Assembly (NCBI GenBank): GCA_047519465.1
Contig: JAPVTA010000151.1
Span: 54,534-118,533, forward strand
Direction: 5' to 3'
DNA: 64,000 nt
Source of the DNA: Thermodesulfobacteriota bacterium
GTDB taxonomy: Bacteria > Desulfobacterota > BSN033 > UBA1163
The first letter of the stretch is position 1. Every line of letters starts with the position of its first letter. Positions 41,301 through 64,000 of this stretch are shown one piece after another. Made by a program: the position numbers and the translations under genes. The notes under the pieces are model-generated. The model did no database searches, was not told the origin of the DNA, and saw only the letters and a program-made list of their open reading frames with translations.

Positions 41301-41432
41301 CTTCCCGAAGAAAGTAATTTCAGAGGGTCCGTTATGATTCCGGTATTGTCCCCGGCTTTGGAGAACGGGAAAAGAAAAGGTGATCGAAATCAACAGACAA
41401 AGGCTTAAGATCTTAACCAATGAGTTAGACAT
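38391..41432 (-). CDS. Large secreted tetratricopeptide-repeat protein (many YbgF/CpoB-like TPR units)
   Basis: It has a signal peptide and a 1013-aa body with repeated ..Y..A...F..L...YP.S....A.Y.LG..Y.. units throughout. Confidence 0.8.
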
Positions 41433-45566: not shown

Positions 45567-45594
45567 TTGACAATGCCACGGAGGATGTTAAAAT
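45567..45594 (+). promoter_or_regulatory. Sigma-70-like promoter candidate for the IclR gene (TTGACA-16 nt-TAAAAT)
   Basis: The sequence is ttgaca atgccacggaggatgt taaaat, located 39 nt upstream of ATG 45633. Confidence 0.4.
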
Positions 45595-45632: not shown

Positions 45633-46466
45633 ATGTCCCTCCTCCAAAAAGAACCTTTTTACAACAGGTCACTCGAAAGGGCTCTCAAGATCTTATGCAC
45701 CTTCCACAGGGATCGACAAGCCTTAACCCTAAGCCAATTATCAAAGATTTTAAACCTCTCCAAAACGACGGTTTCAAGACTCTCTTCGACTTTGATCAAA
45801 TATGATTTCATTAAGTGGGACCCGTATTCAAAACATTATTCCCTTGGTTTAAAGCTGTTCGAATTGGGAAGCGTCATCTTTTCATCCTTTTCCGTCAGAA
45901 GAGTCGCCCTATCACATTTAAGTCAACTTCAAGCCAGGTTGGGTAAAACAACGTTTCTGGGAATCTTACAGGATGATGAATTAGTCTACATCGACAAAAG
46001 AGAGGATCCCAGGAATCCCATCCTGTTTGCATCTCAAATAGGAACGCGGCGCCCGCCCTATTTTGGGATGCTCGGACAGATCCTGATGGCCTATTTACCG
46101 GATAGCGAAGTCAATAGATTATTAAAGAAAACCCCCTTAAAACCGTTAACCAAAAGATCTCTCACGAACATAAAGGAATTTAAGGAGAGGTTACGCAAGA
46201 TTCGTGAACAAGGATTTTTCGTTGATCAGGAAGAAGCCTTTGACGGTGTCACAGGAATCGCTGCCCCTGTTCGAGACTATAGTGGCAACGTGATTGCTGG
46301 AATAGGAGTCGGCATTTTTTCTTCATCTATGGATTCCAACCAAACAAGAAAAATAATAAACGATGTTGTGGAGACGGCGAAGAAGATTTCCCAAGAGATG
46401 GGCTACCTTGAGAGAGGAGGATCCTCACGATTCCAGACGAAATCGACAAAGTCCTCAAGACCATGA
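45633..46466 (+). CDS. IclR-family transcriptional regulator
   Basis: It has an N-terminal wHTH (SLERALKILCTF......LTLSQLSKILNLSKTTVSRL) and a C-terminal effector domain ending ..GVTGIAAPVRDYSGNVIAGIGV... Confidence 0.88.
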   Translation: MSLLQKEPFYNRSLERALKILCTFHRDRQALTLSQLSKILNLSKTTVSRLSSTLIKYDFIKWDPYSKHYSLGLKLFELGSVIFSSFSVRRVALSHLSQLQARLGKTTFLGILQDDELVYIDKREDPRNPILFASQIGTRRPPYFGMLGQILMAYLPDSEVNRLLKKTPLKPLTKRSLTNIKEFKERLRKIREQGFFVDQEEAFDGVTGIAAPVRDYSGNVIAGIGVGIFSSSMDSNQTRKIINDVVETAKKISQEMGYLERGGSSRFQTKSTKSSRP

Positions 46467-48861: not shown

Positions 48862-49568
48862 TGACCATGCTTGCCGTGAATAATTTGAACCTCTCCTACG
48901 GAGGATTTCAAGCCCTCGTGGACATTACCCTCCAGGTGAAAAGAGATCAGATCGTATCCATTCTTGGGTCCAACGGTGCAGGGAAGTCGACGCTTCTTAA
49001 GGCGATCTCTGGACTTCTGAAACCAAGCTCCGGAAGCATCCATTATGACGGAGGGAGGATCGATCATCTCGATCCTCATGAGATTGTAAGATTAGGACTT
49101 GCTTTGGTTCCGGAAGGACGAAAAATTTTCCCCAGCCTCACCGTCTTGGAGAACCTCCTGATCGGGTCCTATGTGCCCGAGGCCCGCCGGACCAAAGACG
49201 AGCAGCTTGAAAATGTCTTTGAACTTTTCCCAAGGCTGAAGGAGAGGAAGGGTCAATTCGGATCAACCCTGAGCGGAGGGGAGCAGCAGATGCTCGCCAT
49301 CGGCAGGGCCCTGATGTCACGGCCCCGTCTGATCGTCTTCGATGAGATCTCTCTGGGCCTCAGTCCAATCATTGTCCAACATCTCTACGAGACCGTCCAT
49401 CGAATCAAACAAAGAGGGATGGTGGTGGTCTTGGTGGAGCAGGATGTGAAGAGAAGCCTCAGGACCGCTGATTTCGCTTATATTCTGCAGGAAGGAAAGA
49501 TCAGGCTGGAAGGAGATCCACGGGGTTTCACCGAAGAGGAGGTCAAGAAGGCCTATTTCGGCCTTTAA
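48861..49568 (+). CDS. ABC transporter ATP-binding protein (LivF-like)
   Basis: It has Walker A GSNGAGKST, signature LSGGEQQML and Walker B LIVFDEISLGL. The ATG overlaps the upstream TGA. Confidence 0.88.
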   Translation: MTMLAVNNLNLSYGGFQALVDITLQVKRDQIVSILGSNGAGKSTLLKAISGLLKPSSGSIHYDGGRIDHLDPHEIVRLGLALVPEGRKIFPSLTVLENLLIGSYVPEARRTKDEQLENVFELFPRLKERKGQFGSTLSGGEQQMLAIGRALMSRPRLIVFDEISLGLSPIIVQHLYETVHRIKQRGMVVVLVEQDVKRSLRTADFAYILQEGKIRLEGDPRGFTEEEVKKAYFGL

Positions 49569-49634: not shown

Positions 49635-50498
49635 ATGCTCACTTTTTTAGAGCCATTCATCAATGGGATTCTGCTCGGCGGCCTTTATGCCGTGATCAGC
49701 ATCGGTCTTTCAATGATCTTCGGAATCATGAGGCAGGTCAACCTGGCTCACGGCGAATTAATGATCCTTGCGAGTTATTTCAGTCTCATCTTCATCCAAC
49801 TCTTGGGGCTCCATCCACTTCTGACTTTCCTTTTCGTCCTCCCCGCAACCTTTCTGTTAGGCTACATGATCCAAACCTTTCTTTTTAACCGGGTTTTAGA
49901 AAAAGGGATCGAGCCCTATCTCATGATCTCTTTCGGACTCTCCATCATCCTTCAAAATGCCATGCTTCTTATCTTCACTCCCGATGCCCGCACCCTAAAG
50001 ACAGGTCTGGCCATTGAGAGTCTCGATGTCTTTGGCCTGTTCCATGTGCCGGTGATCTACCTCGTCGACTGCGCTGCGGGTTTTCTCGTGTTGAGCCTGC
50101 TCCATACAATAATGAAAAGAACATATCTGGGATGGGCGATTCGGGCGGCATCAGATAATTTGACGGCAGCCAAACTGATGGGAATTAACCCCAAAAGGAT
50201 CTACGCCTTAGCCATGGGGATGGCTGTGATCACGGCTGCCATCTCAGGAGTGCTGGTGGGGATGACTTTTACCTTTTACCCCCATTCTGGTACGCAATAC
50301 CTCATCATCGCCTTTGGCGTCGTCATCATTGGGGGTTTGGGAAGCCTGCCAGGAACTTTTTTAGGAGGGTTGATTCTTGGCGTTTCTCAGTTAGTCGGTG
50401 GCCGGATCATTGGCCCCGGACTTCAATTGCTGTGCGGATACATCATCCTGCTCATTGTGTTGACGATCAGGCCCCAAGGATTATTGGGAAGGAAGTAA
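49635..50498 (+). CDS. Branched-chain-type ABC permease (LivH-like)
   Basis: The 287-aa polytopic protein begins ..GILLGGLYAVISIGLSMIFG....NLAHGE... Confidence 0.85.
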   Translation: MLTFLEPFINGILLGGLYAVISIGLSMIFGIMRQVNLAHGELMILASYFSLIFIQLLGLHPLLTFLFVLPATFLLGYMIQTFLFNRVLEKGIEPYLMISFGLSIILQNAMLLIFTPDARTLKTGLAIESLDVFGLFHVPVIYLVDCAAGFLVLSLLHTIMKRTYLGWAIRAASDNLTAAKLMGINPKRIYALAMGMAVITAAISGVLVGMTFTFYPHSGTQYLIIAFGVVIIGGLGSLPGTFLGGLILGVSQLVGGRIIGPGLQLLCGYIILLIVLTIRPQGLLGRK

Positions 50499-51445
50499 TG
50501 CTTTCGATGTCATCCCATCGAATTCGTATCATTGGAATCATTTTGCTATTAGGAGCTCTTGCCACGCTTCCCCTTTGGGCTTCCCGTTACATGGTGAGCA
50601 TCTTCTTGCTCATCTGTCTCTACATGACCTTGGCTTCCATGTGGAACTTGTTGGCTGGCTATTCAGGTTTGATCTCCTTGGGACAGCAGATGTTTATTGG
50701 AATAGGGGGATACTCCCTTGCCGTGTTGTGCATGTACTATGGGCTTCCCATTTTTCTCAGCCTTCTCCTGGGAGGGATGATATCGGTCCTCCTTGCGATC
50801 CTCATCTCCGTGCCGATCTTCAGAATGAAAGGTGTCTATTTTGCAATCGGGACATGGATCATCGCCGAGGCATTAGGAATCTGTTTCAGCAACTGGGGAT
50901 ATGTCCGATACGGGATGGGCCTTTTTATACAGCCGGCTTATAAACTCTCCATCTCGACGATTTACTATGGCGCGCTGGTCATCTGTTGCGGTTCCATTGC
51001 TCTGATCTATTTCCTCCTTCGTTCCAATTTGGGCCTTGCCCTGATGGCCATTCGGGATGATGATGGTGCTTCCGAGGGCCTGGGGGTCAACATTTTTCGC
51101 TGCAAGTTTACCTGTTTCCTGTTGAGCGCGTTTGTTACCGGCGTGACAGCGGGTGTCTTGTACCTGAACACAATCTTCATCCAACCCTTCGAAGCCTTCG
51201 GCATCGGCTGGACCGTCAAACTCCTCTTCATCGTCATCATCGGAGGTCTGGGGACAGTGGCAGGCCCTATTGCGGGAGCGGCCATTTTCGTCATTTTGCA
51301 GCAGTACCTTTCTGAATACGTCGGTTTCAATTTAATCATTTTTGGGACGATTACTATTGTAGTCATCTTTTTTGCGCCCAAAGGTATTGTCGGAACATTC
51401 CAGGAGAGATTGGGGTTCGAAATCTTTCCAGTCAGACGTCGCTAG
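50498..51445 (+). CDS. Branched-chain-type ABC permease (LivM-like)
   Basis: The polytopic protein contains ..NLLAGYSGLISLGQQMFIGIGGY... The ATG at 50498 overlaps the upstream TAA; the ORF-track start is 50432. Confidence 0.85.
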   Translation: MLSMSSHRIRIIGIILLLGALATLPLWASRYMVSIFLLICLYMTLASMWNLLAGYSGLISLGQQMFIGIGGYSLAVLCMYYGLPIFLSLLLGGMISVLLAILISVPIFRMKGVYFAIGTWIIAEALGICFSNWGYVRYGMGLFIQPAYKLSISTIYYGALVICCGSIALIYFLLRSNLGLALMAIRDDDGASEGLGVNIFRCKFTCFLLSAFVTGVTAGVLYLNTIFIQPFEAFGIGWTVKLLFIVIIGGLGTVAGPIAGAAIFVILQQYLSEYVGFNLIIFGTITIVVIFFAPKGIVGTFQERLGFEIFPVRRR

Positions 51446-51492: not shown

Positions 51493-52455
51493 ATGATGTT
51501 CACAAAGAGATTCGACGAATTGAATAAAGACATGTTTCAAGAGTGCGGAGGGAAGGCGGCCCACCTGGGCGAACTCACCCGCCTGAAACTAAACGTCCCG
51601 AATGGTTTTAATGTCCTCGGCCATGCCTTTTACTACCACTTGAAGAAGAATCTTCTTGAGGATCCGATCAGGCAGATCGCAGAGAGGATCCGCTATGACG
51701 ATTTCCAAGACCTTGAAGAGAAGACGAAAGAGATTCGGGAGTTGATCGTGAATGCGCCCGTCCCCCCGGAGATCGAACGGGAGATCATTGAGAATTATGA
51801 AAGACTTTCACAGGGTCAACCAAAACCCTTCGTGGCCGTTCGGTCGTCCGTCGCTGTCAAAGATTCTTCGATCTCTTCTTTTCCAGGGATGATGGATACC
51901 TTCCATTATATTCAAGGAGGAGCGAAGGTGGTGGAAAAGGTGAAGGAATGCTGGGCTTCGGTCTGGTCAGGCCGCGCTGCCTTTTCCCGTCACTCCAAGG
52001 GGATAGAACACACCAAAGCCATCATTGCCCCAACGATCCAATTGATGGTGAACTCAGAAGTGGCGGGGGTGCTCTTTACCGTCAATCCCGTCACCGGGTC
52101 GAGCGACGATATCGTGATCGAGGCGAATTGGGGATTGGGAGAATCCGTCGTCTGCGGAAAATGTCTGTGTGATTTTTATACCGCTGACAAGAATCTCTTC
52201 TGCATCAAAGTAAAGAAAATAGCCAAGAAGCGACAAGCTTATGCGCAGAATAAGGAAGGGGGGGCGGATTGGGTTGAGGTGGAACCCGAGAAGATGGGCA
52301 TGTCCACCCTTTCGGAGGGCCAGGTAGAGGAGCTTTGCAGGGTCGCATGTGTGATCGAGGGGCATTATGGTTACCCCCAGGATATTGAGTGGGCCTATGA
52401 AAAGGGTGCATTATATATCTTGCAAGCCCGCAGGGCAAAGGCTGGTGGCGAGTAA
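51493..52455 (+). CDS. PEP-synthase/PPDK N-terminal ATP-grasp (nucleotide-binding) domain protein, stand-alone (phenylphosphate synthase beta-like)
   Basis: The protein shows GGKAAHLGEL, FVAVRSSVAVKDSSISSFPGMMDT (compare canonical VAVRSSA.AED...SFAG), ECWASVWS.RA, AGVLFT.NP and DIEWAYEKGALYILQARR. At 320 aa it has no swivel or TIM-barrel domain. Confidence 0.8.
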   Translation: MMFTKRFDELNKDMFQECGGKAAHLGELTRLKLNVPNGFNVLGHAFYYHLKKNLLEDPIRQIAERIRYDDFQDLEEKTKEIRELIVNAPVPPEIEREIIENYERLSQGQPKPFVAVRSSVAVKDSSISSFPGMMDTFHYIQGGAKVVEKVKECWASVWSGRAAFSRHSKGIEHTKAIIAPTIQLMVNSEVAGVLFTVNPVTGSSDDIVIEANWGLGESVVCGKCLCDFYTADKNLFCIKVKKIAKKRQAYAQNKEGGADWVEVEPEKMGMSTLSEGQVEELCRVACVIEGHYGYPQDIEWAYEKGALYILQARRAKAGGE

Positions 52456-52586
52456 TGCGAAGGAGGGGAGGTGAACGGACAGGACCACAAGATCAAGAAA
52501 GAATGAAGGCGGGTTTATCCTCTGCCTCTGGAGTTTGGAACACGACGATCATTTGAGAAAAAATGAAAAAAGGAGGATGAGTGTTT

Positions 52587-53621
52587 ATGGCACAAAGAAC
52601 GGTGGATGTACATTGTCATTGGTACCCTAAAGAATATATGGATTATCTTATTTCAAGGGGATCGGCGAATTCTCCCTACTGTATGCACGATGGGGGGACC
52701 CATTACCGGATGTGGTATAAAGGCGTGTGCGTCGCTCATATCGACAGGGCGGGACATTACGATTTAAGGGCAAGGGTTGAGGACTTAGATAAAGCAGGTC
52801 TGGATACCCAACTTCTCACTGTAACCATCCCCGGCCCGGAATCTCTCGAAAGAGACAAAGGGGTCTATTGGGCGAAGAAGCTCAACGATGCTCTCGCCAA
52901 AGCAGCACAGGATTATCCAGGACGCTTTTATCACATGGCTTCGCTTCCTTATCAGGATCCTGACGAAGCTTGCAAAGAACTGGAGAGATGTCATCAGATG
53001 GGTTGCGTTGGCATCCAGATGTTCTCCAACTTCAACGGAGAACTCGTCTACCTCGAGAAGTTCCACCCCATTTACGAGCTGGCGAACAAGTGGGAACTTC
53101 CTTTCCTCATGCATCCCGCTGTTCCGCTCACCGCACCCGTCATGGATATGATGAAAATCCCCTATCAGCTCTGGGCGTTTACCCTGGATACGAGCATGGC
53201 CGTTTTAAGCCTCATCTTCCAAGGTGTCCTTGATAAGTTCCCGCAGATGACCCTTGTCCACGGACACCTGGGAGGAATGGTTCCCTATTTCGTTCGCCGA
53301 CTGCAAGATTCCTACAGGGGTTACGCGAAGGAATGGGGCCTTGAACTGAAGGAGTCCCCAGACCTCACCTATAAGAAAAGGGTCTATCCGGATACGACCT
53401 CTTTTTATGTCCCCGCCATGAAATGCTGTCTGGAGTGGATCGGACCTGAACGCATGGTCATGGGAACGGACTATGCCCATCGTGTGGGCGATCCTGAAGG
53501 AGCCATCAGGGCAATCAAAGACGTGGGGAAGCAGGTAAAACTAAAAAAGGGAGAAGTGGATCTCATCTTGGGAAAGAACCTTGAGAAGCTTTTCAAACTC
53601 CCGTCGATGAAAAAGAAATAG
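52587..53621 (+). CDS. Amidohydrolase-2 family metal-dependent hydrolase/(de)carboxylase (ACMSD/LigW/resorcylate-decarboxylase superfamily)
   Basis: The N-terminal VDVHCHWYP carries the HxH metal motif, and later ..MHPA.. and ..MGTDYAH.. provide the Asp/His motif. RBS GGAGG lies 10 nt upstream of ATG 52587. Confidence 0.7.
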   Translation: MAQRTVDVHCHWYPKEYMDYLISRGSANSPYCMHDGGTHYRMWYKGVCVAHIDRAGHYDLRARVEDLDKAGLDTQLLTVTIPGPESLERDKGVYWAKKLNDALAKAAQDYPGRFYHMASLPYQDPDEACKELERCHQMGCVGIQMFSNFNGELVYLEKFHPIYELANKWELPFLMHPAVPLTAPVMDMMKIPYQLWAFTLDTSMAVLSLIFQGVLDKFPQMTLVHGHLGGMVPYFVRRLQDSYRGYAKEWGLELKESPDLTYKKRVYPDTTSFYVPAMKCCLEWIGPERMVMGTDYAHRVGDPEGAIRAIKDVGKQVKLKKGEVDLILGKNLEKLFKLPSMKKK

Positions 53622-53725
53622 GGTTGAGATCGCAGGGCGTGGGAAGACTCTTTCTTATCGAGTGCCTTTCGCCCAGCGGCTCCACTCGACATCCAGAGCC
53701 GTTCTGAGCTCGAAGGAACAAAAGG

Positions 53726-54469
53726 ATGGAGATTACAGCCAAGTGGGTCGGCTTCGATTTTGGACAGTGTCTGATGGACCCCTCTGGTCTTCGCAATCAC
53801 CTGGTCATCGGGGATGTATGCAAGGAGACGGGGGAACCAGAGAAGATCGACGAGCGAATTCATAAGTATCGGGTATTGAAGGAGAAATATGGCAGCTATG
53901 GAGCCATCAAAGAAGGACACCGGGACGAAATCCTAAGATATGTGTTTGAGAATAATGCCGAGGCCATGGAGATTTTTGCCTTGAAGGAGCAGGAGTATCT
54001 TAAGGTCCCAGAAGGCATTGAAGAGGTTCTTCAATACTTAAGGGATCAGGGGATCAAAAGAGCGGTTGTGGCCGAGCTTAAGAAGACCCTCGGGCCCATC
54101 GGCACAGATATTGTCACACGGTTCTTGAAGAGGAACCATTTGCTCGATTATTTTGACCAGGTCATTACACCCCAAGGGTGTGTGGATCTCCAGGATGGAT
54201 CGGTCGACCTACGATATAAAGGAAAGACGAAGGAAGAGGGTACGTTATACGATGAACTCGCCCAGGACCTCCTCAAGCAGGGCATTCAGACATCGGAGGC
54301 GGTGATGATCGGCGACAAACTGTGGACCGACATCACTCCTGCAAAGAAGAGAGGGTTCCATACGATCCAGTATATCGGCTATATCGACTACGGACGATCG
54401 AAGGATGCCGATTTCGTCATCTCCAATTTTCGCGAGATGAAAGGGATCGTGAAAGGGATGAGGAGATGA
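53726..54469 (+). CDS. HAD-superfamily-like protein with degenerate catalytic motifs
   Basis: Motif I is GFDFGQCL, so DxG replaces DxD. The motif II position reads VVAE, with no Ser/Thr. Motif IV, MIGDKLWTDI, is intact. Confidence 0.55.
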   Translation: MEITAKWVGFDFGQCLMDPSGLRNHLVIGDVCKETGEPEKIDERIHKYRVLKEKYGSYGAIKEGHRDEILRYVFENNAEAMEIFALKEQEYLKVPEGIEEVLQYLRDQGIKRAVVAELKKTLGPIGTDIVTRFLKRNHLLDYFDQVITPQGCVDLQDGSVDLRYKGKTKEEGTLYDELAQDLLKQGIQTSEAVMIGDKLWTDITPAKKRGFHTIQYIGYIDYGRSKDADFVISNFREMKGIVKGMRR

Positions 54470-55152
54470 AAACCCCGAAGCATTTGATCATTGAATACGA
54501 AGATCAATCCGCAAAGACCATTCCCTTCAGCCAACTGGACAGGTCTATCTGGCGGGAACTCTCGCGGACAGGCCTCTGCTCCCCGCCGACCGAGTGGGTG
54601 GAACCTTCACAGAGCTACCTCCTGCTGCGCTGGAAGGACGGATGGCAGGAGGTGGTCGCCACGGGCCAAGACGCCGTCGATCTGTTGCGTTACTACATTC
54701 TCGAAAGGGTGGAAGAGACGGGAAGAGCGGTTCTTGAAACGGGGGTGGACTATCCTCTTCTCCTCACGGTGAAACGGCTTCCAAAGACGTTAGAGAGCCT
54801 GACCATCGTGAATGGCAACGCTGCGAAAGCATACCATGTGGAGCCGAAGGGGAAGAAAGAAGAGGGAAATAAGATAGAGCATGTGGAGTACGATCGGGCA
54901 GAGCGCCATTTCCAGCCTCACGCCCAAGAGACGGGAGAAGAAGGCATTCAGTCCATGGCCCGCCTCCTAACAGCGGAGATGACAAAAAAGGATCTGACGC
55001 CCAAAAAACTTCTGGATCTCGAGCCGGGTCAAAAAGTTACAAAGTACAAAGAGTTGGCAAAAGCGATGAGAATCAGGGCGATGGAAAAACAGGAGGATCT
55101 TTACGGATTCTTACAACTCATGGTCGGAAAACTGGCGGCCTCTGAGAAATAA
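54466..55152 (+). CDS. Hypothetical soluble protein (228 aa, K/E-rich C-terminus), translationally coupled to the HAD-like gene
   Basis: The ATGA start/stop overlap is at 54466-54469. I see no TM segment and no recognisable motif. The ORF-track 5' extension to 54322 overlaps the HAD gene. Confidence 0.5.
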   Translation: MKTPKHLIIEYEDQSAKTIPFSQLDRSIWRELSRTGLCSPPTEWVEPSQSYLLLRWKDGWQEVVATGQDAVDLLRYYILERVEETGRAVLETGVDYPLLLTVKRLPKTLESLTIVNGNAAKAYHVEPKGKKEEGNKIEHVEYDRAERHFQPHAQETGEEGIQSMARLLTAEMTKKDLTPKKLLDLEPGQKVTKYKELAKAMRIRAMEKQEDLYGFLQLMVGKLAASEK

Positions 55153-55157
55153 ACTCC

Positions 55158-55222
55158 GTTAGAAATGTAACCCCCCTGCAGAGCCCCGCACCGCATGGTG
55201 TACAGGGCAGAGCAGTGAGGCA
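55158..55222. repeat. Intergenic inverted repeat GTTAGAAAT ... ATTTCTAAC with an inner CCCTG/CAGGG pairing
   Basis: The outer arms lie at 55158-55166 and 55214-55222, between the orphan gene and the swivel-domain gene. Confidence 0.7.
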
Positions 55223-55273
55223 CTATTTCTAACTGGGTAAACGCTGCCGATTTCCGGGGACGGAGGGTTCACG

Positions 55274-56998
55274 ATGTACGAAAGGTTGAATCTCGACACA
55301 CATGACCGAAGCATCTCAGGGTTAAGAACGCTTCGAGTCCCTGAGGATGAGGATATCTTCTGGTTTCGGGATGATCTACACCAGCCCTATCCCATCTCTC
55401 CCTTGGGAATGACCACTATTCAAAAACATCATTCCTGGGGGTATCACGTGGCCGCCGAGGAGACGAAATTGCCGCCTTCCAAAGGGGGTCATGTCAAAGT
55501 TTATAAGGGAAGAGTCTTCTTAGGATTCGAGGGGATTACGGATGCCGAGGAGGTCGGCAGAAGGGCTGCCGAATTTGGAAAGCTCCTCGATTACTGCAAA
55601 ACTCACTGGGATGAATATTACACGCTCCATATCGAAGAGGTGAAGCAGGGTCTTCACTTCATGGCCAGTGTGAATGATGGGATGTCCGACCACGATTTAC
55701 ACTATGCCCTCCGCAGAAGCGAGGAGATTAATAAGAGAAACTGGGAGATTCACTTCACGTTAATGTATGTGGCGGACGCCCTCTATTTTGAATTCGAAGC
55801 CTTCTGCAAGGAGCATGGATCGGAGGAGAAGGACTTCGTCGGTATGCTCAAGGGTCTTGAGACCATGGCCACGAGAACAGACCTCTCGCTGTGGGAGCTG
55901 ACGAAGTCGGCAGAGGAGTTGAAAATAGGTGAAACCTTCCTCCAGAAGGACCCCAAATTGCTTTTAGGTGAGCTGGAGAAAGATTCAAAAGCAGTGAAAT
56001 GGTTGGAGGCATTTCACAAATTTTTGGATGTCTTTGGCCACCGGATTACAGCCGCTCACCTGGATGTCATGTTTCCAACATGGATCGAGGACCCCTCACC
56101 CGTGATGGAAACGATCAGGACCTATATCCCCAAGGTGAGACAGGGGTGGGAATACAAAGGGGAGAGGGAGAAGATGTTGAAAGAGGGGCAAGAGACGGTG
56201 GATCATTTCATGGCCAAACTGAAAGATGAAGAAAAGCAGAAGTTTAAACAACTTCTCGACATAGGCAAGAAGATCTATCAATTTCAAGAGGATCATGGCT
56301 TTTACATCGATGGGGCCTCCACCGCCCGGCTGCATGATGTGGCCATGGTCTGCGGAAGAAGACTAAAACAGTATGGGCTTCTCGAGACACCGGAAGATGT
56401 CTTTTTCCTCAACTACAGCGAGCTCGAGGAGGTGCTGTCCGGCTTGGCCCGAAACCGGGCAGCGGCCGTCTATCACTACCGTCGGATGGTAGCTCCCTTG
56501 GTTAAAGAAAGGAAATGGGGATGGTATCAGGTTGGAGAGATTCAGGAGGCTCCCCTCACCCTTGGAGCCGCCCCTGAAAAGCTAAACGATCCGATCATGA
56601 TCAAAGTCTTTGGAATGATCGATGAAGTGATTAAGGCGGGAAAGGTCGAAGAATTGAAGGTCATGGATGTCTTCGAGGGTTATCCTGGGGCCCCGGGTAT
56701 TGTGGAAGGCCCGGCGCGGGTGATCACAAGCTTTGAAGGCTTTCCGAAGTTGCAGCCCGGGGAGATTCTCGTCTGTCCATATACGGCCACGGCTTGGACA
56801 CCTCTCTTTCCGAAGATCAAGGGAGTGGTCACGGATACCGGCGGGATGCTGACCCATGCGGCGATCACGGCGAGAGAGTATCGAATTCCAGCGGTGGTTG
56901 GGACGTGGAGGGCGACCCGATCCATTTCGGATGGAGACATCATCAGGGTGGATGGCAACGCAGGGACCGTAGAGGTCTTGAAGAAGGCGAAAACCTGA
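55274..56998 (+). CDS. PEP-utilising-enzyme mobile (phosphohistidine swivel) domain protein with a large N-terminal substrate-domain candidate (phenylphosphate synthase alpha / rifampin-phosphotransferase-like architecture)
   Basis: The C-terminal domain is GYPGAPGIVEGPARVI....L.PGEILVCPYTATAWTPLF..IKGVVTDTGGMLTHAAITAREYRIPAVVGT, where TH is the phospho-His. The protein ends right after the swivel domain and has no PEP/pyruvate TIM barrel. The N-terminus contains FWFRDDLHQPYPISPL. Confidence 0.75.
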   Translation: MYERLNLDTHDRSISGLRTLRVPEDEDIFWFRDDLHQPYPISPLGMTTIQKHHSWGYHVAAEETKLPPSKGGHVKVYKGRVFLGFEGITDAEEVGRRAAEFGKLLDYCKTHWDEYYTLHIEEVKQGLHFMASVNDGMSDHDLHYALRRSEEINKRNWEIHFTLMYVADALYFEFEAFCKEHGSEEKDFVGMLKGLETMATRTDLSLWELTKSAEELKIGETFLQKDPKLLLGELEKDSKAVKWLEAFHKFLDVFGHRITAAHLDVMFPTWIEDPSPVMETIRTYIPKVRQGWEYKGEREKMLKEGQETVDHFMAKLKDEEKQKFKQLLDIGKKIYQFQEDHGFYIDGASTARLHDVAMVCGRRLKQYGLLETPEDVFFLNYSELEEVLSGLARNRAAAVYHYRRMVAPLVKERKWGWYQVGEIQEAPLTLGAAPEKLNDPIMIKVFGMIDEVIKAGKVEELKVMDVFEGYPGAPGIVEGPARVITSFEGFPKLQPGEILVCPYTATAWTPLFPKIKGVVTDTGGMLTHAAITAREYRIPAVVGTWRATRSISDGDIIRVDGNAGTVEVLKKAKT

Positions 56999-57011: not shown

Positions 57012-58856
57012 ATGCCGTTTCGGAAAAGGCTTGCAAAGATCGATTTAACTGAAAGAAAAGTAGAGGTTGAGGAACTGCCTGAAGGGATCGTGACGAAATT
57101 TCTTGGGGGCAGGGGGATGAATATGTACCTTCTCGCAAAACGGTTTCATCCCAGGATCGATCCTCTCGGTCCGGAGAATCCTCTCGTGTTTGGTATAGGA
57201 TACTTAACAGGAACGCTGAGCCTCGGAGGCCGGATGAATGTCTCGGCCATCTCTCCTGAAACAGGGTATCTGGGTGATGCCAATATGGGGGGGGATTTTG
57301 GAGCGGAACTCGCATACACCGGACTCTCGCATCTTGTCATCAGTGGAAGGAGTGAGAACCCTGTTTATCTATCGATTGAAAATAACCGAATTGAAATTCG
57401 CGATGCCCGGCCTTTGATAGGGCTCGATACCGTTCAAACGCAAAAGGCGATCCGGCACGAATTGGGAGATAAGAAGATCCAGGTGGCTTGCATCGGTCTT
57501 GCTGGAGAAAACCTCGTAAGGTTTGCGGGGGTGAGAAGCGGTTTGAAGAGCAGCGCGGCCCGAACCGGAATGGGTGCGGTGATGGGATCCAAAAAATTAA
57601 AAGCGATAGCGGTTCGGGGGACTCAGGATCTCCCTGTGAGGGATCCTCGAGGGCTCTTGAGTTATTACCAGGATCTTGTGAAGGGCCTGATGGAGAGAAA
57701 ATGGGTACAGGCCCTTGGTCGGTTCGGAACGCCATTGATGGTTGCCACAGGGAATGCGATCGGCCTGTTGGCGGTGCACAATCACCAAAGGACCAGTGTG
57801 GGCGAAGCAGGATCGGCCCTGGTAGCAGAAAACCTGGATCGATATTCGACCGGAATGGTCGCTTGCAGGAGTTGCCCGGTTCATTGCCGCCATCGGCTCA
57901 GGATAAACGATGACATCACCGGAGAGGGGCCTGAGTATGCCTCCGTCGGGTCCATGGGATGGAAGATCGGAAGTTTGAATCTGGACAACATTCTCCATGC
58001 GGCAGAACTCTGCAACCGCTACGGGTTGGATACCATCTCGACAGGCTCTTATATTGCCTGGGCCATGGAACTTTACCAGAGAGGAATTATTGATGAAAAG
58101 GTGGTCGGCTTTCCATTGGATTGGGGGGATCGAGAAGGAATCGAAAAGATCATCCACGGGATTGCCCGAAGAGAAGGGTTTGGTGATCTTTTGGCGGAGG
58201 GATCCTTCGCGCGAGAGCGATTAGGGTCGAAGGCCGCCGAATTCCTTTTACAGGTGAAGAACCTCCCTTTTGAGATGACCGATGAGAGGCCCACAAAAAG
58301 TTTCTCTCTGGGAATGGCGACAGCCAGCCGGGGAGCCTGCCACATGCGAAGCAGACCGTCTTTAGATGTTCTCATGCTTCCCTCTCCCCTCCTGGAGAAA
58401 CTCTATGGGGGAGGAGTCAGCAACGATTTCACCTCCTACCGGGGAAAAGGAAGAATGGTCTGGTGGCATGAACTTCTCTATGCCGTCGCCGATTCTCTTG
58501 GCGTTTGCAGATTCATGGCCGTCTTCAGCAGTCCTCATTCTCCACAGTATAAAGAATTTAGCAATCTCATCACGCTCGCTTCGGGGCTGAAGATTTCAGA
58601 AGAAGATTTAAAGAAGGTGGGGGAAAGAATCTGCACTTTGGAGAGGAGAATGCTCAACTTGTGGGGGATCGACCGCAGACAGGATCGACTTCCCGACAGG
58701 TACTTCGAACCGATTGCGGATGGACCGGCCGAGGGGCACCGGATTGATCCGATCGGATTCAACACAATGTTAGAGGAATACTATGACCTTCACGGTTGGG
58801 ACCGAGACGGAAGAGTCACCCAGGAAGGAATAAAAAGGCTGGAAATCCCACTTTGA
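57012..58856 (+). CDS. Aldehyde:ferredoxin oxidoreductase family tungsto-/molybdopterin enzyme
   Basis: Motifs ..FLGGRG.N.YLL, GGR.NVSAISPETG, GENLVRFA, ACRSCPVHC (Cx2Cx3C), GEGPEYASVGSMG, CNRYGLDTISTG, ATASRGACH and DSLGVCRF are present. Confidence 0.88.
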   Translation: MPFRKRLAKIDLTERKVEVEELPEGIVTKFLGGRGMNMYLLAKRFHPRIDPLGPENPLVFGIGYLTGTLSLGGRMNVSAISPETGYLGDANMGGDFGAELAYTGLSHLVISGRSENPVYLSIENNRIEIRDARPLIGLDTVQTQKAIRHELGDKKIQVACIGLAGENLVRFAGVRSGLKSSAARTGMGAVMGSKKLKAIAVRGTQDLPVRDPRGLLSYYQDLVKGLMERKWVQALGRFGTPLMVATGNAIGLLAVHNHQRTSVGEAGSALVAENLDRYSTGMVACRSCPVHCRHRLRINDDITGEGPEYASVGSMGWKIGSLNLDNILHAAELCNRYGLDTISTGSYIAWAMELYQRGIIDEKVVGFPLDWGDREGIEKIIHGIARREGFGDLLAEGSFARERLGSKAAEFLLQVKNLPFEMTDERPTKSFSLGMATASRGACHMRSRPSLDVLMLPSPLLEKLYGGGVSNDFTSYRGKGRMVWWHELLYAVADSLGVCRFMAVFSSPHSPQYKEFSNLITLASGLKISEEDLKKVGERICTLERRMLNLWGIDRRQDRLPDRYFEPIADGPAEGHRIDPIGFNTMLEEYYDLHGWDRDGRVTQEGIKRLEIPL

Positions 58857-58875: not shown

Positions 58876-59316
58876 ATGAGAATTGGGATCGAAAAAATGA
58901 AGTGCACGGGTTGTCATCTCTGTGAGATGGTCTGTTCCCTCTTTCATTCGGGCGCCATCAACCCTTCCAAGTCGGCGATCCGCATTTTAAAGGACGATCT
59001 GGAGACCGATCTGCATACGCCTGTGGTTTGCCATCAATGTAAAAAGATGACGTGCCTTAAGGAGGAAGAGGCTGATGAAGCGATCGAGAAGTCCAAATTT
59101 ATCTGGCCGAGCCGGAGAGCGGACGTCTGTCCCTTTGACGGGTTGACGGTTTTCGAAGATTCGGCCTATCACTGCGATCTTTGTGGAGGAAGCCCGCAAT
59201 GCGTCTCCGTCTGCACCAACGGTGCGATTTGGGTCAAAACCGGAAAGGGGGAGAACGCGAGGCTCATGAAAGGGGATGACGAAATATGCAAGGGAGGAAG
59301 AAAAGATGAGTTATGA
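58876..59316 (+). CDS. Small poly-[4Fe-4S] ferredoxin-like electron-transfer subunit
   Basis: It shows CTGCHLCEMVC, then CHQCKKMTC, CPFDGL and CDLCGGSPQCVSVC. It lies 20 nt downstream of the AOR gene. Confidence 0.75.
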   Translation: MRIGIEKMKCTGCHLCEMVCSLFHSGAINPSKSAIRILKDDLETDLHTPVVCHQCKKMTCLKEEEADEAIEKSKFIWPSRRADVCPFDGLTVFEDSAYHCDLCGGSPQCVSVCTNGAIWVKTGKGENARLMKGDDEICKGGRKDEL

Positions 59317-60490
59317 AAAGCTTTTTTCGTCCGTCACGATGAGAGGCGTTACCTTTCCAAACCGTATCCAGCGGACATCCATGGTTTCCGGACTCTCTAC
59401 GGAGGAGGGTTGGGTCACAGAGGATTTAAAGAAGCGATATCAGAGGGAAGCAAAAGGCGGACCGGGATCCATTGTGGTTGAGGCGGCTGTCATTATCCCA
59501 TCGAAGAGCCCTTTCAATCTTCGGATCAGCGATGATCGCTTCGTACCCGGCCTGACCGAGGTGGTGAAGGCGATACGCGAAGCGAACCGTGAAGTCAAGA
59601 TTGGCATCCAGCTCATGCAACATCTTAAGCTTTCCCGAACGGGCTGGAGACAAAAGGTTGAGGATTTCAAAACGGAAGAACTTCCAAATATCGTGAATGA
59701 CCACGCGGCAGCTGCGAAGCGTGCCCGATCGGCCGGATTCGATTTTATTGAGATCCACATGGCCCATGCCTATGTTCTCTCTTCATTCTTATCCCGGGCG
59801 AACAAGAGAACCGACGGGTATGGAAGCAGTCTTGAAAACAGGATGAAGTTACCCATCGAGGTCTATCAGGCAGTGCGCCAGGCCGTCGGAAATGATTACC
59901 CTCTTGGTATCCGCATCAACGGCGAGGATTTCCACGTGGAGGGAAACACTTTAGCTCAGAGCACCCGGATCGCTAGGAGGTTTGCCGAGCTCGGGGTGGA
60001 CTATATCAGCGTCTCTGCTGGAAGTCGGTTCGAGGATGCGAAGATCCCACCCGAGGGGAGTCCCCCGGATCCGATGTCCGGCTACAGTGGCCATCGCATG
60101 AGCCCATGGTTCTGGTGGCCTGATGGGACCCACCTCTATCTGGCGGAGGGAATCAGAGAAGCGGTCCGGGAAGCCGGATTTAAGACTCCCGTTGTCGCAG
60201 CGGGCAAGATCAGGGAACCTAAACATGCCGAAGAGATCCTCGAAAAGGGCAAAGCCGACATGATCGGACTGTGCCGATCTCTCCTCTGCGACCCGGACTG
60301 GCCTATCAAAACAAAGGAAGGGAGAGAGAAGGAGATCGTTCGATGCGTTGCCTGTAACTGGTGCCTCGAAGCAGACTCAAGATATGAAAAGGTCAACTGT
60401 GACCGTTGGCCCGAAGGAAGCATCCACGCCCCTGCTTCTTTCCAAACAAAGATGGCGCGGCCCGGCCAATTCAAGAAGGAAGACCTGTGA
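59306..60490 (+). CDS. Old-yellow-enzyme-family FMN oxidoreductase with a C-terminal Cys cluster and no FAD/NAD(P) domain
   Basis: The protein reads MSYEKLFSSVTMRGVTFPNRI......EAAVI, then FDFIEIHMAHAYVLSSFLS...N.RTD.YGSSLENRM, then CVACNWC-x11-C. RBS GGGAGGAAG precedes the start. The gene overlaps the ferredoxin gene by 11 nt. Confidence 0.8.
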   Translation: MSYEKLFSSVTMRGVTFPNRIQRTSMVSGLSTEEGWVTEDLKKRYQREAKGGPGSIVVEAAVIIPSKSPFNLRISDDRFVPGLTEVVKAIREANREVKIGIQLMQHLKLSRTGWRQKVEDFKTEELPNIVNDHAAAAKRARSAGFDFIEIHMAHAYVLSSFLSRANKRTDGYGSSLENRMKLPIEVYQAVRQAVGNDYPLGIRINGEDFHVEGNTLAQSTRIARRFAELGVDYISVSAGSRFEDAKIPPEGSPPDPMSGYSGHRMSPWFWWPDGTHLYLAEGIREAVREAGFKTPVVAAGKIREPKHAEEILEKGKADMIGLCRSLLCDPDWPIKTKEGREKEIVRCVACNWCLEADSRYEKVNCDRWPEGSIHAPASFQTKMARPGQFKKEDL

Positions 60491-62279: not shown

Positions 62280-64000
62280 ATGGCTAAAGAAAGAAAGGTA
62301 ATCTTCACCGACTGTACGCTCTGCTACCATAGTTGCGGCACAAAGGTCACCGTCGAAGGTGGAAAGGCAGTCAAGGTGGAAGGGTTAGAGTCTCATCCCT
62401 TAAATAAAGGCAAACTTTGTCCAAAGGGAGAGGCCGCCCTCAATAACATCTATAGTCCGAGTCGGGTAAAGTATCCCATGAAAAGAGTGAACGGAAACTG
62501 GGAGAGAATCACATGGGATCAGGCGCTGACAGAAATAGCGAATAAACTTTTGAGGCTGAGGGAAGAATATGGTCCCTCGATGCTGGGGATGTTTAGCGGA
62601 TCGATTGGGGTTGAAAACCTGGAGATGGCCGGTTTAACCCAGAGATTCAAAGCAGCCTTTGGCTCTCCCAACTTCTTCTCCGTGGAAAGCATCTGCTATC
62701 GGATGCGAATTCGAACAAGGCAGATCACCTTTGGCAAATACCCGACCGAGGAGCTTGATTCAAATCTTTATATCCTCTGGGGTCACAACCCTGATGAATC
62801 TGACTTTCCTTTGCAACTCGCGATCGGGGAAAATCTGAAAAAGGGGGCAAAACTGGTCGTGATCGACCCCAAGAGGATTCCTTTGGCGGATCATGCAGAA
62901 ATGTATCTCAGGATAAGACCCGGTACGGACGGAGCACTGGCCCTTGCGCTGATAAACGTGATGATCAGTGAAAGGCTTTACGATGCCGATTTCATCGAGA
63001 AGTACACCTACGGGTTTGATCAGCTGGTCCCCCATATACAGAAATATACTCCAGAGTGGGCTGAGAAGATTACCTGGATCCCTGCCGAAGACATCCGGAA
63101 GCTCGCCCGCCTCCTTGCAAAGACAAAAGGAGCAGGCATTTACCAGGGGACCAATACCCAGGATCAAACAGCCAACGGTACTCAGAACAGTCGCGCCTTC
63201 TCCATTCTTCAGGTCATGACCGGAAATATAAATAACCCGGGCGGATGGGTGATCAGCCCTCGGTTGAAGCTGGGCGACGTTACCCTGGAGGTGCAGGGAG
63301 AACCCCTTGGAGCTGACCAATATCCGCTTTTCCATGAGGTATGGGGTAGAAGAAGCCCTTACGGCGTGGTCACATGTGTTCCTGAAAGCGTCCCGCAAAA
63401 AATCAAGGCGTTCTTTGTGATTGGAGGAAATCCTGTTGTTTCGATGCCAGACTCTAACGCTTTCAGGTCAGCCTTTAAGAAACTGGAATTGCTCGTCGTG
63501 CACGACCTGTTCATGACCGAAACGGGAGAACTCGCTCATTACATGCTGCCCGCCTGCTCACACCTGGAGAAGTGGGGGTTGGCCTATACCTATAATGTGT
63601 GCCACTGTCTCCCCTATCTCATGCTCAGGAAAAAGGCCATCGACCCCTTTTATGAAAGCTGGTCGGAGTGGAGACTTTTTACGGAACTTGCCAAGAAGTT
63701 GGGTATGGGAGGTCAATTCCCTTGGAAGTCGGAGGAGGAGCTCGTGGTATTCGAATTAGGACCTACTGGGTTGACCTTCAAACAGCTTCTGGAAGAAAAA
63801 CCAGAAGGGGCTTTTTATCAACAGAAGGCATACGGAATGAAAGAGGTGAAGTTTTCGACACCGACGCGGAAGATTGAGATATACAGTGATGCATTAGAAA
63901 AGGTGGGATTTGACCCTCTCCCCACATATCTGGAGCCGCGGAAAAGCCCCGTCAATTCGCCAGAATTGTTGGAAAAATATCCATTGATACTTTCGACAGG
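62280..64000 (+). CDS. Molybdopterin (bis-MGD) oxidoreductase catalytic subunit, N-terminal ~573 aa (3' end runs off the window)
   Basis: It is absent from the ORF track because it is open-ended. RBS GGAGG precedes ATG 62280. Translation gives MAKERKVIFTDCTLCYHSCGTKVTVEGGKAVKVEGLESHPLNKGKLCPKG (Cx2Cx3C...C FeS-0 motif), a candidate Cys ligand in ..FFSVESICYRM.., and ..LVVIDPKR....A...L.IRPGTDGALALA... Confidence 0.85.
   Translation, partial: MAKERKVIFTDCTLCYHSCGTKVTVEGGKAVKVEGLESHPLNKGKLCPKGEAALNNIYSPSRVKYPMKRVNGNWERITWDQALTEIANKLLRLREEYGPSMLGMFSGSIGVENLEMAGLTQRFKAAFGSPNFFSVESICYRMRIRTRQITFGKYPTEELDSNLYILWGHNPDESDFPLQLAIGENLKKGAKLVVIDPKRIPLADHAEMYLRIRPGTDGALALALINVMISERLYDADFIEKYTYGFDQLVPHIQKYTPEWAEKITWIPAEDIRKLARLLAKTKGAGIYQGTNTQDQTANGTQNSRAFSILQVMTGNINNPGGWVISPRLKLGDVTLEVQGEPLGADQYPLFHEVWGRRSPYGVVTCVPESVPQKIKAFFVIGGNPVVSMPDSNAFRSAFKKLELLVVHDLFMTETGELAHYMLPACSHLEKWGLAYTYNVCHCLPYLMLRKKAIDPFYESWSEWRLFTELAKKLGMGGQFPWKSEEELVVFELGPTGLTFKQLLEEKPEGAFYQQKAYGMKEVKFSTPTRKIEIYSDALEKVGFDPLPTYLEPRKSPVNSPELLEKYPLILST

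Follow-up and report, generated by a model that had tools for sequence, protein, structure and literature searches.

In a 64-kb stretch of DNA from a Thermodesulfobacteriota bacterium (contig JAPVTA010000151.1; the whole stretch is referred to as the window), five co-directional genes on the plus strand at positions 51493-56998 form a block that, with moderate confidence, we read as encoding an aryl-phosphate synthase together with a dephosphorylating ortho-carboxylase, i.e. a putative two-step, ATP-driven system for the ortho-carboxylation of a phenolic compound. An original prediction made from the bare sequence had proposed an ATP-driven activation and carboxylation route built from parts other than those of the known one. 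This idea is supported by the likeness of the kinase genes to phenylphosphate synthase, by an amidohydrolase of the decarboxylase type, and by the lack of UbiD and UbiX; the carboxylation itself is suggested by gene content. The block consists of the following genes:

51493..52455, plus strand: ATP-grasp nucleotide-binding subunit, PpsB-like, 320 amino acids (aa); PF01326 PPDK_N, E 2.5e-84
52581..53621, plus strand: amidohydrolase-2 of the non-oxidative (de)carboxylase type of ACMSD and LigW, the proposed carboxylase; PF04909, E 4.8e-27
53726..54469, plus strand: HAD-fold protein with C1 cap, 247 aa, the proposed aryl-phosphate-cleaving or phosphoryl-accepting partner; weak above-threshold matches to HAD_2, Hydrolase and Hydrolase_like
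54466..55152, plus strand: system-specific 228-aa protein with a beta-rich N-terminal and a helical C-terminal domain; no family, coupled to the HAD gene
55274..56998, plus strand: phospho-His swivel subunit, PpsA-like, with an N-terminal substrate domain, 574 aa; PF00391 at residues 494-564

Domains were assigned by Pfam and NCBIfam profile searches, and the Pfam E-values of the window proteins lie far beyond chance level. Structural relatives were identified by matches to the Protein Data Bank (PDB) and by AlphaFold2 (AF2) models combined with Foldseek. A pattern-based scan covering one genome per species yielded 85 carriers, mostly metagenome-assembled genomes (MAGs), of which 80 loci were kept. 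Locus statistics refer to 51 non-redundant, well-flanked loci (at least 5 kb on each side) in which partner genes were counted within 10 kb. The phenol cluster on plasmid pAZKH of Azoarcus sp. KH32C (L086; ppsA, ppsB, CBS-domain ppsC, ppcB, ppcD, ppcA, ppcG, UbiD and UbiX) was used as reference.

The outer genes of the block, 2.8 kb apart, encode the two halves of a split kinase. The 320-aa protein contains the predicted motifs GGKAAHLGEL and VAVRSS; GGK, VRSS and other motifs are invariant in 37 homologues, and alignment with Azoarcus KH32C PpsB extends over 315 residues (35% identity, E 1e-60). In the 574-aa protein the swivel domain, with the sequence GGMLTHAAI and a TH motif that is invariant among homologues, stops 10 residues short of the stop codon. 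This protein aligns with Azoarcus PpsA over residues 25-570, or 95% of its length (26% identity, E 2e-64). No protein of the block matched the phosphoenolpyruvate (PEP)/pyruvate barrel PF02896 in Pfam. The claims that the second half ends after its swivel domain without a barrel, and that the pair has the PpsB plus PpsA architecture, thus hold along the full length of both proteins.

Other families are more distant from the two halves. Models for PEP synthase and rifampin phosphotransferase (Rph) in NCBIfam score far below their own cut-offs: the best NCBIfam match of the 320-aa protein is the PEP synthase N-terminus (292 bits versus a cut-off of 598), and NF041857 (rifampin phosphotransferase) reaches 220 and 129 bits on the two halves versus a cut-off of 999. 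The nearest NCBIfam models of the 574-aa protein are those of PRK08296 ('hypothetical protein'; 306 bits versus a cut-off of 578), and an exact-sequence look-up of this protein gave no match. Its relatives of solved structure cover mainly the swivel domain (residues 451-569), the best being Listeria rifampin phosphotransferase (3.5e-30); Rph_4th (PF27448) is among the precomputed domains of its homologues.

In a neighbour-joining tree of the His-swivel subunit, which comprises few references and carries no support values, some 60 relatives group with the 574-aa protein in a single clade. Azoarcus PpsA was placed outside that clade, beside split kinases of Rhizobium, Thermomicrobium, Rhodococcus and Natribaculum plasmids, so that orthology with the PpsA proteins of phenol clusters was not recovered with this small reference set. 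Given the separate clade and the full-length likeness, the kinase pair appears to be a paralogous family with the architecture of phenylphosphate synthase, not its orthologue. The own clade of the swivel subunit and the end-to-end alignments with PpsA and PpsB also argue that the halves are not fragments of PEP synthase or pyruvate, phosphate dikinase (PPDK). In one related locus, on Deltaproteobacteria chromosome CP070752 (L001, 6348-7307), the ATP-grasp gene is called as two products of 284 and 34 aa, which points to a frameshift or a sequencing error.

The gene located between the kinase genes, both here and in most related loci, encodes a PF04909 protein (95.9 bits versus a gathering score of 26.4). 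Translation probably begins at the ATG at 52587, for a length of 344 aa. The predicted (de)carboxylase type was substantiated by PDB matches to LigW (3.3e-32), human ACMSD (1.7e-29, full length), Pseudomonas ACMSD (about 1e-29) and gamma-resorcylate decarboxylase (4e-25), with 2,3-dihydroxybenzoate, salicylate and iso-orotate decarboxylases as further relatives; no solved relative falls outside the non-oxidative decarboxylases and their kin. Alignment with human ACMSD indicates that the protein keeps the metal-ligand and catalytic residues: H11 and H13, a His in MHP (about residue 177), a His in GHLGG (229) and an Asp in GTDY (297). Arg56 (IDRAGHYD) and one Arg of the FVRRLQ pair (about 239-240) align with ACMSD Arg47 and Arg235. 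All of these residues, the Arg pair included, are conserved in 38 homologues of related loci. The five former positions correspond to ACMSD His6, His8, His174, His224 and Asp291. In ACMSD the residues serve as HxH metal ligands, third metal His, catalytic His of GHxGG, metal Asp, and an Arg pair that binds the substrate carboxylate. With the ACMSD catalytic set conserved, the protein looks like an active (de)carboxylase; it falls in the decarboxylase branch and does not look like a lactamase or a nucleotide hydrolase. Amidohydrolase-2 decarboxylases carboxylate phenols ortho to the hydroxyl group in vitro.

The HAD-fold protein had been described as crippled, lacking the second Asp of motif I and the Ser/Thr of motif II. 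Its AF2 model (pLDDT 86) matched PH1655, HDHD4/NANP and L-2-haloacid dehalogenases, all of the C1-cap type (Foldseek E 5e-12, TM about 0.62). Motif I reads GFDFGQC: the nucleophilic Asp is kept and Asp+2 is Gly, as predicted, and the form GFD[FY]GQC with Gly at this position is invariant in 23 homologues from related loci and 30 database homologues. The motif II position alternates between Ala and Ser among homologues, and the second loss is therefore true for the window copy only. Motif IV (GDKxxTD) and the lysine motif KGKTK (motif III) are invariant or nearly so, and 514 database homologues share 60-97% identity. Since it is strongly conserved with its nucleophile intact, the protein appears to be constrained and specialised, not decayed, and the term crippled does not apply.

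The start codon of the 228-aa gene and the stop codon of the HAD gene overlap in the sequence ATGA, closely preceded by GAGGAG, which fits the proposed translational coupling. Consistent with the statement that its product has no recognisable motif, Pfam and NCBIfam gave no match. The AF2 model (pLDDT 85) consists of a beta-rich and a helical domain; a fold assignment was rejected, as the best PDB match had an E-value of 0.025 and a TM below 0.3. When 1.84 billion representative proteins were searched with a profile, 106 clusters only were retrieved, all of the same size or of halves, and no larger relatives. In Peptococcaceae BRH_c4b (L004/L005/L023, 9299-9930) and Pelotomaculum terephthalicicum (L027, about 9180-9900) the orphan is split into two genes of 116 and 94 aa that correspond to the beta-rich and the helical domain.

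The distribution of the block was analysed starting from the 574-aa protein, which has 506 database relatives at E <=1e-20 (best 92% identity). Carriers belong to at least eight phyla and include Thermodesulfobacteriota, Syntrophorhabdales, Syntrophaceae, Desulfatiglandales, Peptococcaceae and Chloroflexota, further Acidobacteriota, Actinomycetota (Gaiellales), Alphaproteobacteria (Xanthobacteraceae, Rhodospirillales) and one member of the Archaeoglobaceae. Three of the scanned carriers are isolates (Pelotomaculum terephthalicicum JT, Desulfocarbo indianensis, Roseiarcus fermentans), and a further isolate, Syntrophus gentianae, was added from a look-up of its own. Within 10 kb, an amidohydrolase gene was observed in 40 of the 51 well-flanked loci and an ATP-grasp gene in 36. 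The amidohydrolase gene is located between or beside the kinase genes in Thermodesulfobacteriota, Syntrophorhabdales, Bacillota, Chloroflexota, Acidobacteriota, Actinomycetota and Alphaproteobacteria. The 40 amidohydrolase-positive loci contain as phosphatase-fold partner either the HAD gene (21 loci) or a gene for an inositol-monophosphatase-family (IMPase) protein (16 loci), never both, and in three loci neither; the orphan accompanies the HAD gene in 20 of 21 loci. The conserved unit is a trio of ATP-grasp, amidohydrolase and His-swivel genes plus one phosphatase-fold partner, which is either HAD with orphan or the IMPase-family protein. The expectation that the block is conserved as a unit was thus borne out across many phyla, though not for the five genes as such. 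Three classes of loci were distinguished:

Class I (including the window): ATP-grasp, amidohydrolase, HAD, orphan and His-swivel genes, usually followed by genes for an old-yellow-enzyme-family (OYE) flavoprotein and an AMP ligase
Class II (Alphaproteobacteria, Chloroflexota, Acidobacteriota, others): ATP-grasp, amidohydrolase, His-swivel, IMPase-family protein (PF00459, 96 bits) and ATP-binding cassette (ABC) transporter
Class III (Desulfobacterales-like): OYE, ligase, BadH-like short-chain dehydrogenase/reductase (SDR), acyl-CoA dehydrogenase, ABC transporter, His-swivel and gamma-carbonic-anhydrase/PaaY-like protein

Class I loci often include genes for enoyl-CoA hydratase (ECH) and 3-hydroxyacyl-CoA dehydrogenase (3HCDH), together with a Liv-type ABC transporter or a 370-aa membrane protein. 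In class III, HAD-orphan-amidohydrolase genes are sometimes found upstream.

Several additional genes were observed near the block. A multi-pass membrane protein of about 370 aa, for which no Pfam or NCBIfam family was found, adjoins the kinase genes in 11 of the 51 loci, mostly in those without ABC transporter (L002, 5198-6256; L004, 11854-12963; L034, 11771-12886; others), and may be a substrate permease. Extra phosphatases, namely DUF89/ARMT1 'damage-control phosphatase' and NagD-type HAD proteins (PF13344), are encoded near the block in L002, L016, L034, L047, L061, L064, L076 and L085; their presence would be in keeping with a reactive phosphorylated intermediate in the pathway. Finally, on plasmid pRlBT01c of Rhizobium leguminosarum (L087, 6899-15704) the genes of a split PpsA/PpsB-like kinase come before those for a biotin carboxyl carrier protein, a biotin carboxylase, a hypothetical protein, a HAD hydrolase and acetoacetate-CoA ligase, a cluster that may serve a kinase-driven carboxylation of a ketone (acetone?) of another build. 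Kinases combined with a HAD protein and a carboxylase thus seem to occur repeatedly, with carboxylases of different types.

In the window the block is part of a larger cluster which extends from an IclR-family gene at 45633 to the window end and comprises, in addition, the following genes:

45633..46466, plus strand: IclR-family regulator, PcaR/PobR-like, at the head of the cluster; PF01614, PF09339
46558..51445, plus strand: Liv-type ABC uptake system, open reading frames (ORFs) whose L001 orthologues carry PF13458, PF00005 and PF02653
46558/46630-47919, plus strand: ABC substrate-binding protein (ORF)
48136-48861 and 48858-49568, plus strand: two ABC ATPases (ORFs)
49635-50498 and 50432-51445, plus strand: two ABC permeases (ORFs)
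57012-58856, plus strand: tungsten-type aldehyde:ferredoxin oxidoreductase (AOR); PF02730, PF01314
58876-59316, plus strand: small 4Fe-4S protein, 146 aa (ORF)
59276..60490, plus strand: OYE-family flavoprotein without NAD(P)H/FAD domain; PF00724
60527..62188, plus strand: aryl-acid AMP/CoA ligase of the salicylate/2,3-dihydroxybenzoate (DHB) type; 5wm2 8.4e-107, DhbE (1md9) 2e-105
62280..64000, plus strand: molybdenum/tungsten (Mo/W) bis-pyranopterin guanine dinucleotide oxidoreductase, cut by the window end; PF04879, PF00384

The IclR-family regulator scores 144 bits with TIGR02431 (pcaR_pcaU), which is below the cut-off, and such a gene precedes the block in six further loci (L006, L008, L009, L011, L012 and L085). 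A sigma-70-like promoter match (11/12) is located before it at 45567-45594; such matches do not exceed chance as a class. In a promoter and terminator scan of 45-64 kb the counts were at chance level, and operon limits are therefore not resolved. The Liv-type ABC genes adjoin the kinase genes in 30 of the 51 loci. No ligand could be derived from the binding protein, whose PDB relatives are distant amino-acid binders only.

The ligase, which has counterparts in 32 of the 51 loci, keeps the His-Asn pair aligned with that of DhbE and lacks the Ser aligned with DhbE Ser240. In DhbE the pair contacts the ortho (2-)hydroxyl and Ser240 the 3-hydroxyl group. With 421 bits in TIGR02275 versus a cut-off of 724, the ligase is not an EntE/DhbE equivalog. 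The OYE-family protein, present in 30 of the 51 loci, likely starts at 59306 and has a C-terminal Cys motif (CxxCxxC...C, read from the translation). Its PDB matches are thermophilic-type ene-reductases (2e-43) and also NCR and DCR.

The AOR was considered as a BamB-like dearomatising reductase and rejected as such, since it is a genuine AOR (1aor of P. furiosus, 8.6e-113) and BamB matches only partly. AOR genes occur in 8 of the 51 loci, and a position between the PpsA-like and OYE genes is confined to the window and the loci most closely related to it (L006-L008, L061). The AOR and the 4Fe-4S protein are a lineage-specific insert that may feed aromatic aldehydes to the ligase step or supply low-potential electrons. 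The Mo/W oxidoreductase is 87% identical to an orthologue of about 683-685 aa in relatives and is FdhA/PhsA-like, with all scores below NCBIfam cut-offs; inspection of its N-terminus by eye revealed no twin-arginine signal motif. Its gene follows the ligase gene in the window, L007, L009, L061 and L085, and the PpsA-like gene in the Archaeoglobaceae MAG (L077). The enzyme could act in the same pathway, as a hydroxylase or as a dehydroxylase.

No aromatic-pathway genes were found in the first 45 kb of the window. Instead, positions 672-42000 on the minus strand are occupied by a surface-polysaccharide locus with four paralogous PMT_2-type membrane glycosyltransferases, three methyltransferases, a DegT aminotransferase, GT2 and GT1 transferases, a FemAB-like acyltransferase, UDP-GlcNAc 2-epimerase, ManC and a 1013-aa TPR protein (38391-41432). 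MgsA/RarA is encoded at 43939-45285. The GC skew changes sign near 42-46 kb, where the coding strand changes.

The type of product was deduced from the genes next to the conserved unit. Seven class II loci contain a gene for a bicupin of the gentisate/salicylate 1,2-dioxygenase family, referred to as GDO-like (E. coli GDO 1.6e-69; TIGR02272 267 bits, below the equivalog cut-off; 5-aminosalicylate dioxygenase 245 bits). In Roseiarcus fermentans DSM 24875 (L051, 2652-15748) it accompanies genes for ATP-grasp, amidohydrolase, His-swivel, IMPase-like and ABC transporter proteins, and is directly preceded by a gene for a FAH-family hydrolase, the other enzyme type of the gentisate pathway. As enzymes of the salicylate/DHB-ligase type and of the gentisate-dioxygenase type both act on ortho-hydroxy aromatic acids, the product is probably an ortho-hydroxybenzoate. 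An ortho-hydroxy acid is what the regiochemistry of amidohydrolase-2 decarboxylases run in reverse would give.

A candidate substrate is offered by physiology. A review (PMC3727088) describes anaerobic hydroquinone degradation as carboxylation to gentisate by an 'uncharacterized carboxylase', followed by formation of gentisyl-CoA and reductive dehydroxylation, and refers to the work of Gorny & Schink (1994) on Desulfococcus Hy5 and a fermenting organism. Growth on hydroquinone is listed for Pelotomaculum terephthalicum, and not for P. isophthalicum, in PMC10989887. The block is present in the hydroquinone-fermenting isolates S. gentianae (L002) and P. terephthalicicum JT (L027). S. gentianae is the fermenting organism of the 1994 work. 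Named Syntrophus isolates are missing from the 80 loci kept of 85, as are further members of Pelotomaculum, which is weak evidence given the pattern-based scan. Since both hydroquinone users carry the block, hydroquinone and gentisate are the most likely substrate-product pair; the genes would also suit a conversion of phenol to salicylate or of 4-aminophenol to 5-aminosalicylate. In its specific form, the proposal is that the block is the missing hydroquinone carboxylase system (hydroquinone to hydroquinone phosphate to gentisate) and the first ATP-driven carboxylase of the amidohydrolase superfamily. HAD plus orphan and IMPase would be interchangeable dephosphorylating modules, and the system, spread over at least eight phyla, would feed an OYE-CoA route in anaerobes or gentisate cleavage in aerobes. 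This specific form is put forward tentatively, as a possibility with less in its favour than the general reading.

The following sequence of steps would account for the genes. (i) By homology, the ATP-grasp subunit would pyrophosphorylate the swivel His of the 574-aa subunit. (ii) The latter would pass the beta-phosphoryl group to the substrate hydroxyl, yielding aryl phosphate, AMP and Pi as in phenylphosphate synthase. (iii) Judging from gene content, the HAD protein with its 228-aa partner, or the IMPase-family protein in other lineages, would remove the phosphate at or near the amidohydrolase metal site. (iv) The amidohydrolase would add CO2 ortho to the freed phenolate, as gene content and active-site conservation suggest. 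(v) In anaerobes the ortho-hydroxybenzoate would be ligated to CoA by the salicylate/DHB-type ligase, and the Fe-S OYE, with the BadH-like SDR, ECH and acyl-CoA dehydrogenase of relatives, would reduce and process the ring; in some aerobes the GDO-like enzyme would cleave the ortho-hydroxybenzoate instead. As its keto tautomer, a hydroquinone-type ring becomes an enedione, and enediones are classical substrates of OYEs; this could, speculatively, underlie the 'reductive dehydroxylation'.

The system resembles the Pps/Ppc system of anaerobic phenol degradation (Thauera/Aromatoleum/Azoarcus and Geobacter) in the split ATP-grasp and His-swivel subunits without barrel, in the catabolic context with a regulator, and in its logic, which leads from a kinase via a phosphatase-fold protein and a decarboxylase-family enzyme to an aryl-CoA ligase. 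Phenylphosphate carboxylase combines a HAD-type delta subunit with a decarboxylase-family core. The core enzyme differs: it is an amidohydrolase-2 metal enzyme in the window and a UbiD-type, prenylated-FMN enzyme in PpcABCD, and no UbiX is present. When the canonical phenol cluster was searched against the 64-kb window by tblastn, only PpsA and PpsB gave matches; UbiD, UbiX, PpcA, PpcB, PpcD, PpcG and the CBS-domain protein PpsC (Azoarcus query) gave none, in line with the prediction that no UbiD/UbiX partner is recognisable. Nor do UbiD and UbiX co-vary with the block elsewhere: homologues of UbiD, PpcA, PpcB and UbiX are likewise absent from 84 of 85 related loci, and in the remaining one (L066) UbiD, UbiX and PpsC form a separate canonical pps/ppc phenol cluster nearby. 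Given the lack of the UbiD/UbiX core and the separate kinase clade, the system, though likened to phenylphosphate synthase/carboxylase, appears to stand outside that carboxylase family. The regiochemistry would differ too, being para in the Pps/Ppc system and, from the types of ligase and dioxygenase, expected to be ortho here.

Comparison with other enzymes was similarly mixed. The amidohydrolase shares with ACMSD, LigW (5-carboxyvanillate), gamma-resorcylate, 2,3-dihydroxybenzoate and salicylate decarboxylases the PF04909 fold, the ACMSD metal ligands, the catalytic His and Asp and two Arg residues. Identity to solved members is low, however (bit scores of about 90-115), and the known enzymes act alone without ATP, whereas the window gene is located within kinase genes and next to one for a phosphatase-fold protein. 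Rph and PigC/RedH-type phosphotransferases likewise have ATP-grasp, substrate-binding and swivel-His modules, transfer a phosphoryl group to a hydroxyl and lack the barrel, but they are single polypeptides, whereas the window has two genes with three between them and weak similarity outside the swivel domain. An analogy to the steroid 25-hydroxy kinase/lyase was discarded because that kinase belongs to an unrelated phosphotransferase family (PMC8449060). With respect to the hydroquinone pathway of S. gentianae and Desulfococcus Hy5 (hydroquinone to gentisate to gentisyl-CoA to benzoyl-CoA), S. gentianae has the block, an ortho-hydroxy-aryl acid ligase and a reductase candidate, and the gene-predicted steps match the reported intermediates, a link that rests on co-occurrence. 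No gene assignment for this pathway was found in the papers searched. A literature search, with subscription journals outside its scope, found no description of a PpsAB-like kinase combined with an amidohydrolase-2.

Several observations weigh against ortho-carboxylation of a phenolic compound by this block. Without the general acid/base Asp+2, ordinary phosphatase turnover by the HAD protein is doubtful, although the loss would presumably matter little because phenolate is a good leaving group. Orthology of the HAD protein with PpcD and of the orphan with PpcG (85 aa versus 228 aa) was rejected, as BLASTP detected no similarity in either case; PpcD shares the HAD fold but has a different cap class from the C1-capped window protein. 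The amidohydrolase has an HxH motif as in ACMSD and iso-orotate decarboxylase, and its full-length match, ACMSD, acts on a non-aromatic substrate, whereas phenolic-acid decarboxylases carry ExH. In class III the His-swivel gene has no ATP-grasp or amidohydrolase gene within 10 kb, as in L037, L039, L045, L057, L065, L070 and L072, where it lies between the ABC transporter and gamma-carbonic-anhydrase/PaaY-like genes. Most class II loci lack a dioxygenase gene, the GDO-like gene being confined to the seven mentioned, and the GDO-like, ligase and SDR matches are all below NCBIfam equivalog cut-offs. To these are added the few references and missing support values of the swivel-subunit tree, and the fact that many carriers are MAGs without known physiology.

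Four other explanations were weighed. The first, which we regard as unlikely, separates the kinase from carboxylation: the amidohydrolase would act alone, the kinase would phosphorylate a ring hydroxyl of gentisate or gentisyl-CoA for reductive removal by the OYE, and the HAD or IMPase protein would clear mis-phosphorylated products. It would make use of the reported and unexplained reductive loss of both hydroxyls of gentisyl-CoA (PMC3727088), and is in keeping with the adjacent OYE and ligase genes in 30-32 of the 51 loci, with the 'damage-control' phosphatases of several loci and with a HAD protein devoid of Asp+2. The tightest linkage, however, is that of kinase and amidohydrolase and not of kinase and OYE. 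Moreover, many class II loci consist of the trio, the IMPase-like gene and an ABC transporter without OYE or ligase, and some of them have a ring-cleaving dioxygenase that needs no dehydroxylation. Phenol carboxylation by the amidohydrolase-2 family is, in addition, thermodynamically uphill, which argues for coupling to ATP.

Rather improbable is a non-aromatic substrate, in which case the kinase would phosphorylate the enol of a (for example cyclic) ketone, much as PEP synthase treats pyruvate, and the ACMSD-like enzyme would carboxylate the enol(ate) to a beta-keto acid, to be converted to its CoA ester and degraded by beta-oxidation-like steps. The full-length likeness to ACMSD with its HxH motif would suit such a route, as would the ketone carboxylation suggested for the sister family by the Rhizobium split kinase with its acetoacetate-CoA ligase and biotin carboxylase. 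Genes for BadH-like SDR, a cyclohexanecarboxyl-CoA-dehydrogenase-like acyl-CoA dehydrogenase, ECH and 3HCDH are frequent neighbours, but these alicyclic-type enzymes are equally expected after ring reduction of an aromatic CoA ester. A phenolic substrate is favoured by the salicylate/DHB type of the ligase with its 2-hydroxyl-contacting His-Asn pair, by the GDO-like gene of aerobic loci (in one case with a FAH hydrolase), by the PcaR/PobR-like regulator and by the occurrence of the block in hydroquinone fermenters.

Very improbable is a split xenobiotic or antibiotic kinase of the rifampin-phosphotransferase type that inactivates a toxic phenolic compound amid unrelated catabolic genes. Listeria Rph is the best solved match of the 574-aa protein, Rph_4th occurs in homologues, and other split kinases are found in nonribosomal peptide synthetase or P450 contexts; yet the Rph match is mainly confined to the swivel domain, whereas the full-length match is PpsA, and synteny with amidohydrolase, phosphatase-fold, transporter and catabolic genes across phyla is unexpected for a stand-alone resistance gene. 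Finally, the view that the halves are remnants of a PEP synthase or PPDK broken by rearrangement, for which the PEP synthase match of the ATP-grasp protein might be quoted, is refuted by the score of that match far under its cut-off, by the lack of the barrel, by the match of the N-terminal 450 residues of the 574-aa protein to PpsA and PRK08296 and not to PEP synthase, and by the intactness of both genes with 39-92% identity in hundreds of sequences.

To our knowledge, ATP-driven carboxylation of phenol is known in one build only, PpsABC with the UbiD-type PpcABCD, along with an aniline counterpart, and we know of no identification of the enzymes of anaerobic hydroquinone degradation since the physiological papers of 1994. 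If the proposed ortho-carboxylation is correct, the block would be a second build that uses a carboxylase from another superfamily, and the principle of phosphorylating first and carboxylating thereafter would have evolved modularly. It would also provide a biocatalytically attractive ortho-carboxylation, pulled by ATP and not by molar bicarbonate, and hundreds of metagenome entries now called 'PEP-utilizing enzyme' or 'pyruvate, water dikinase' would be re-annotated. The cluster supplies gene candidates for the hydroquinone carboxylase, the gentisate-CoA ligase and the gentisyl-CoA-reducing system, and its carriers S. gentianae, P. terephthalicicum and R. fermentans are cultured, R. fermentans being a convenient organism for following up the hydroquinone/gentisate idea.

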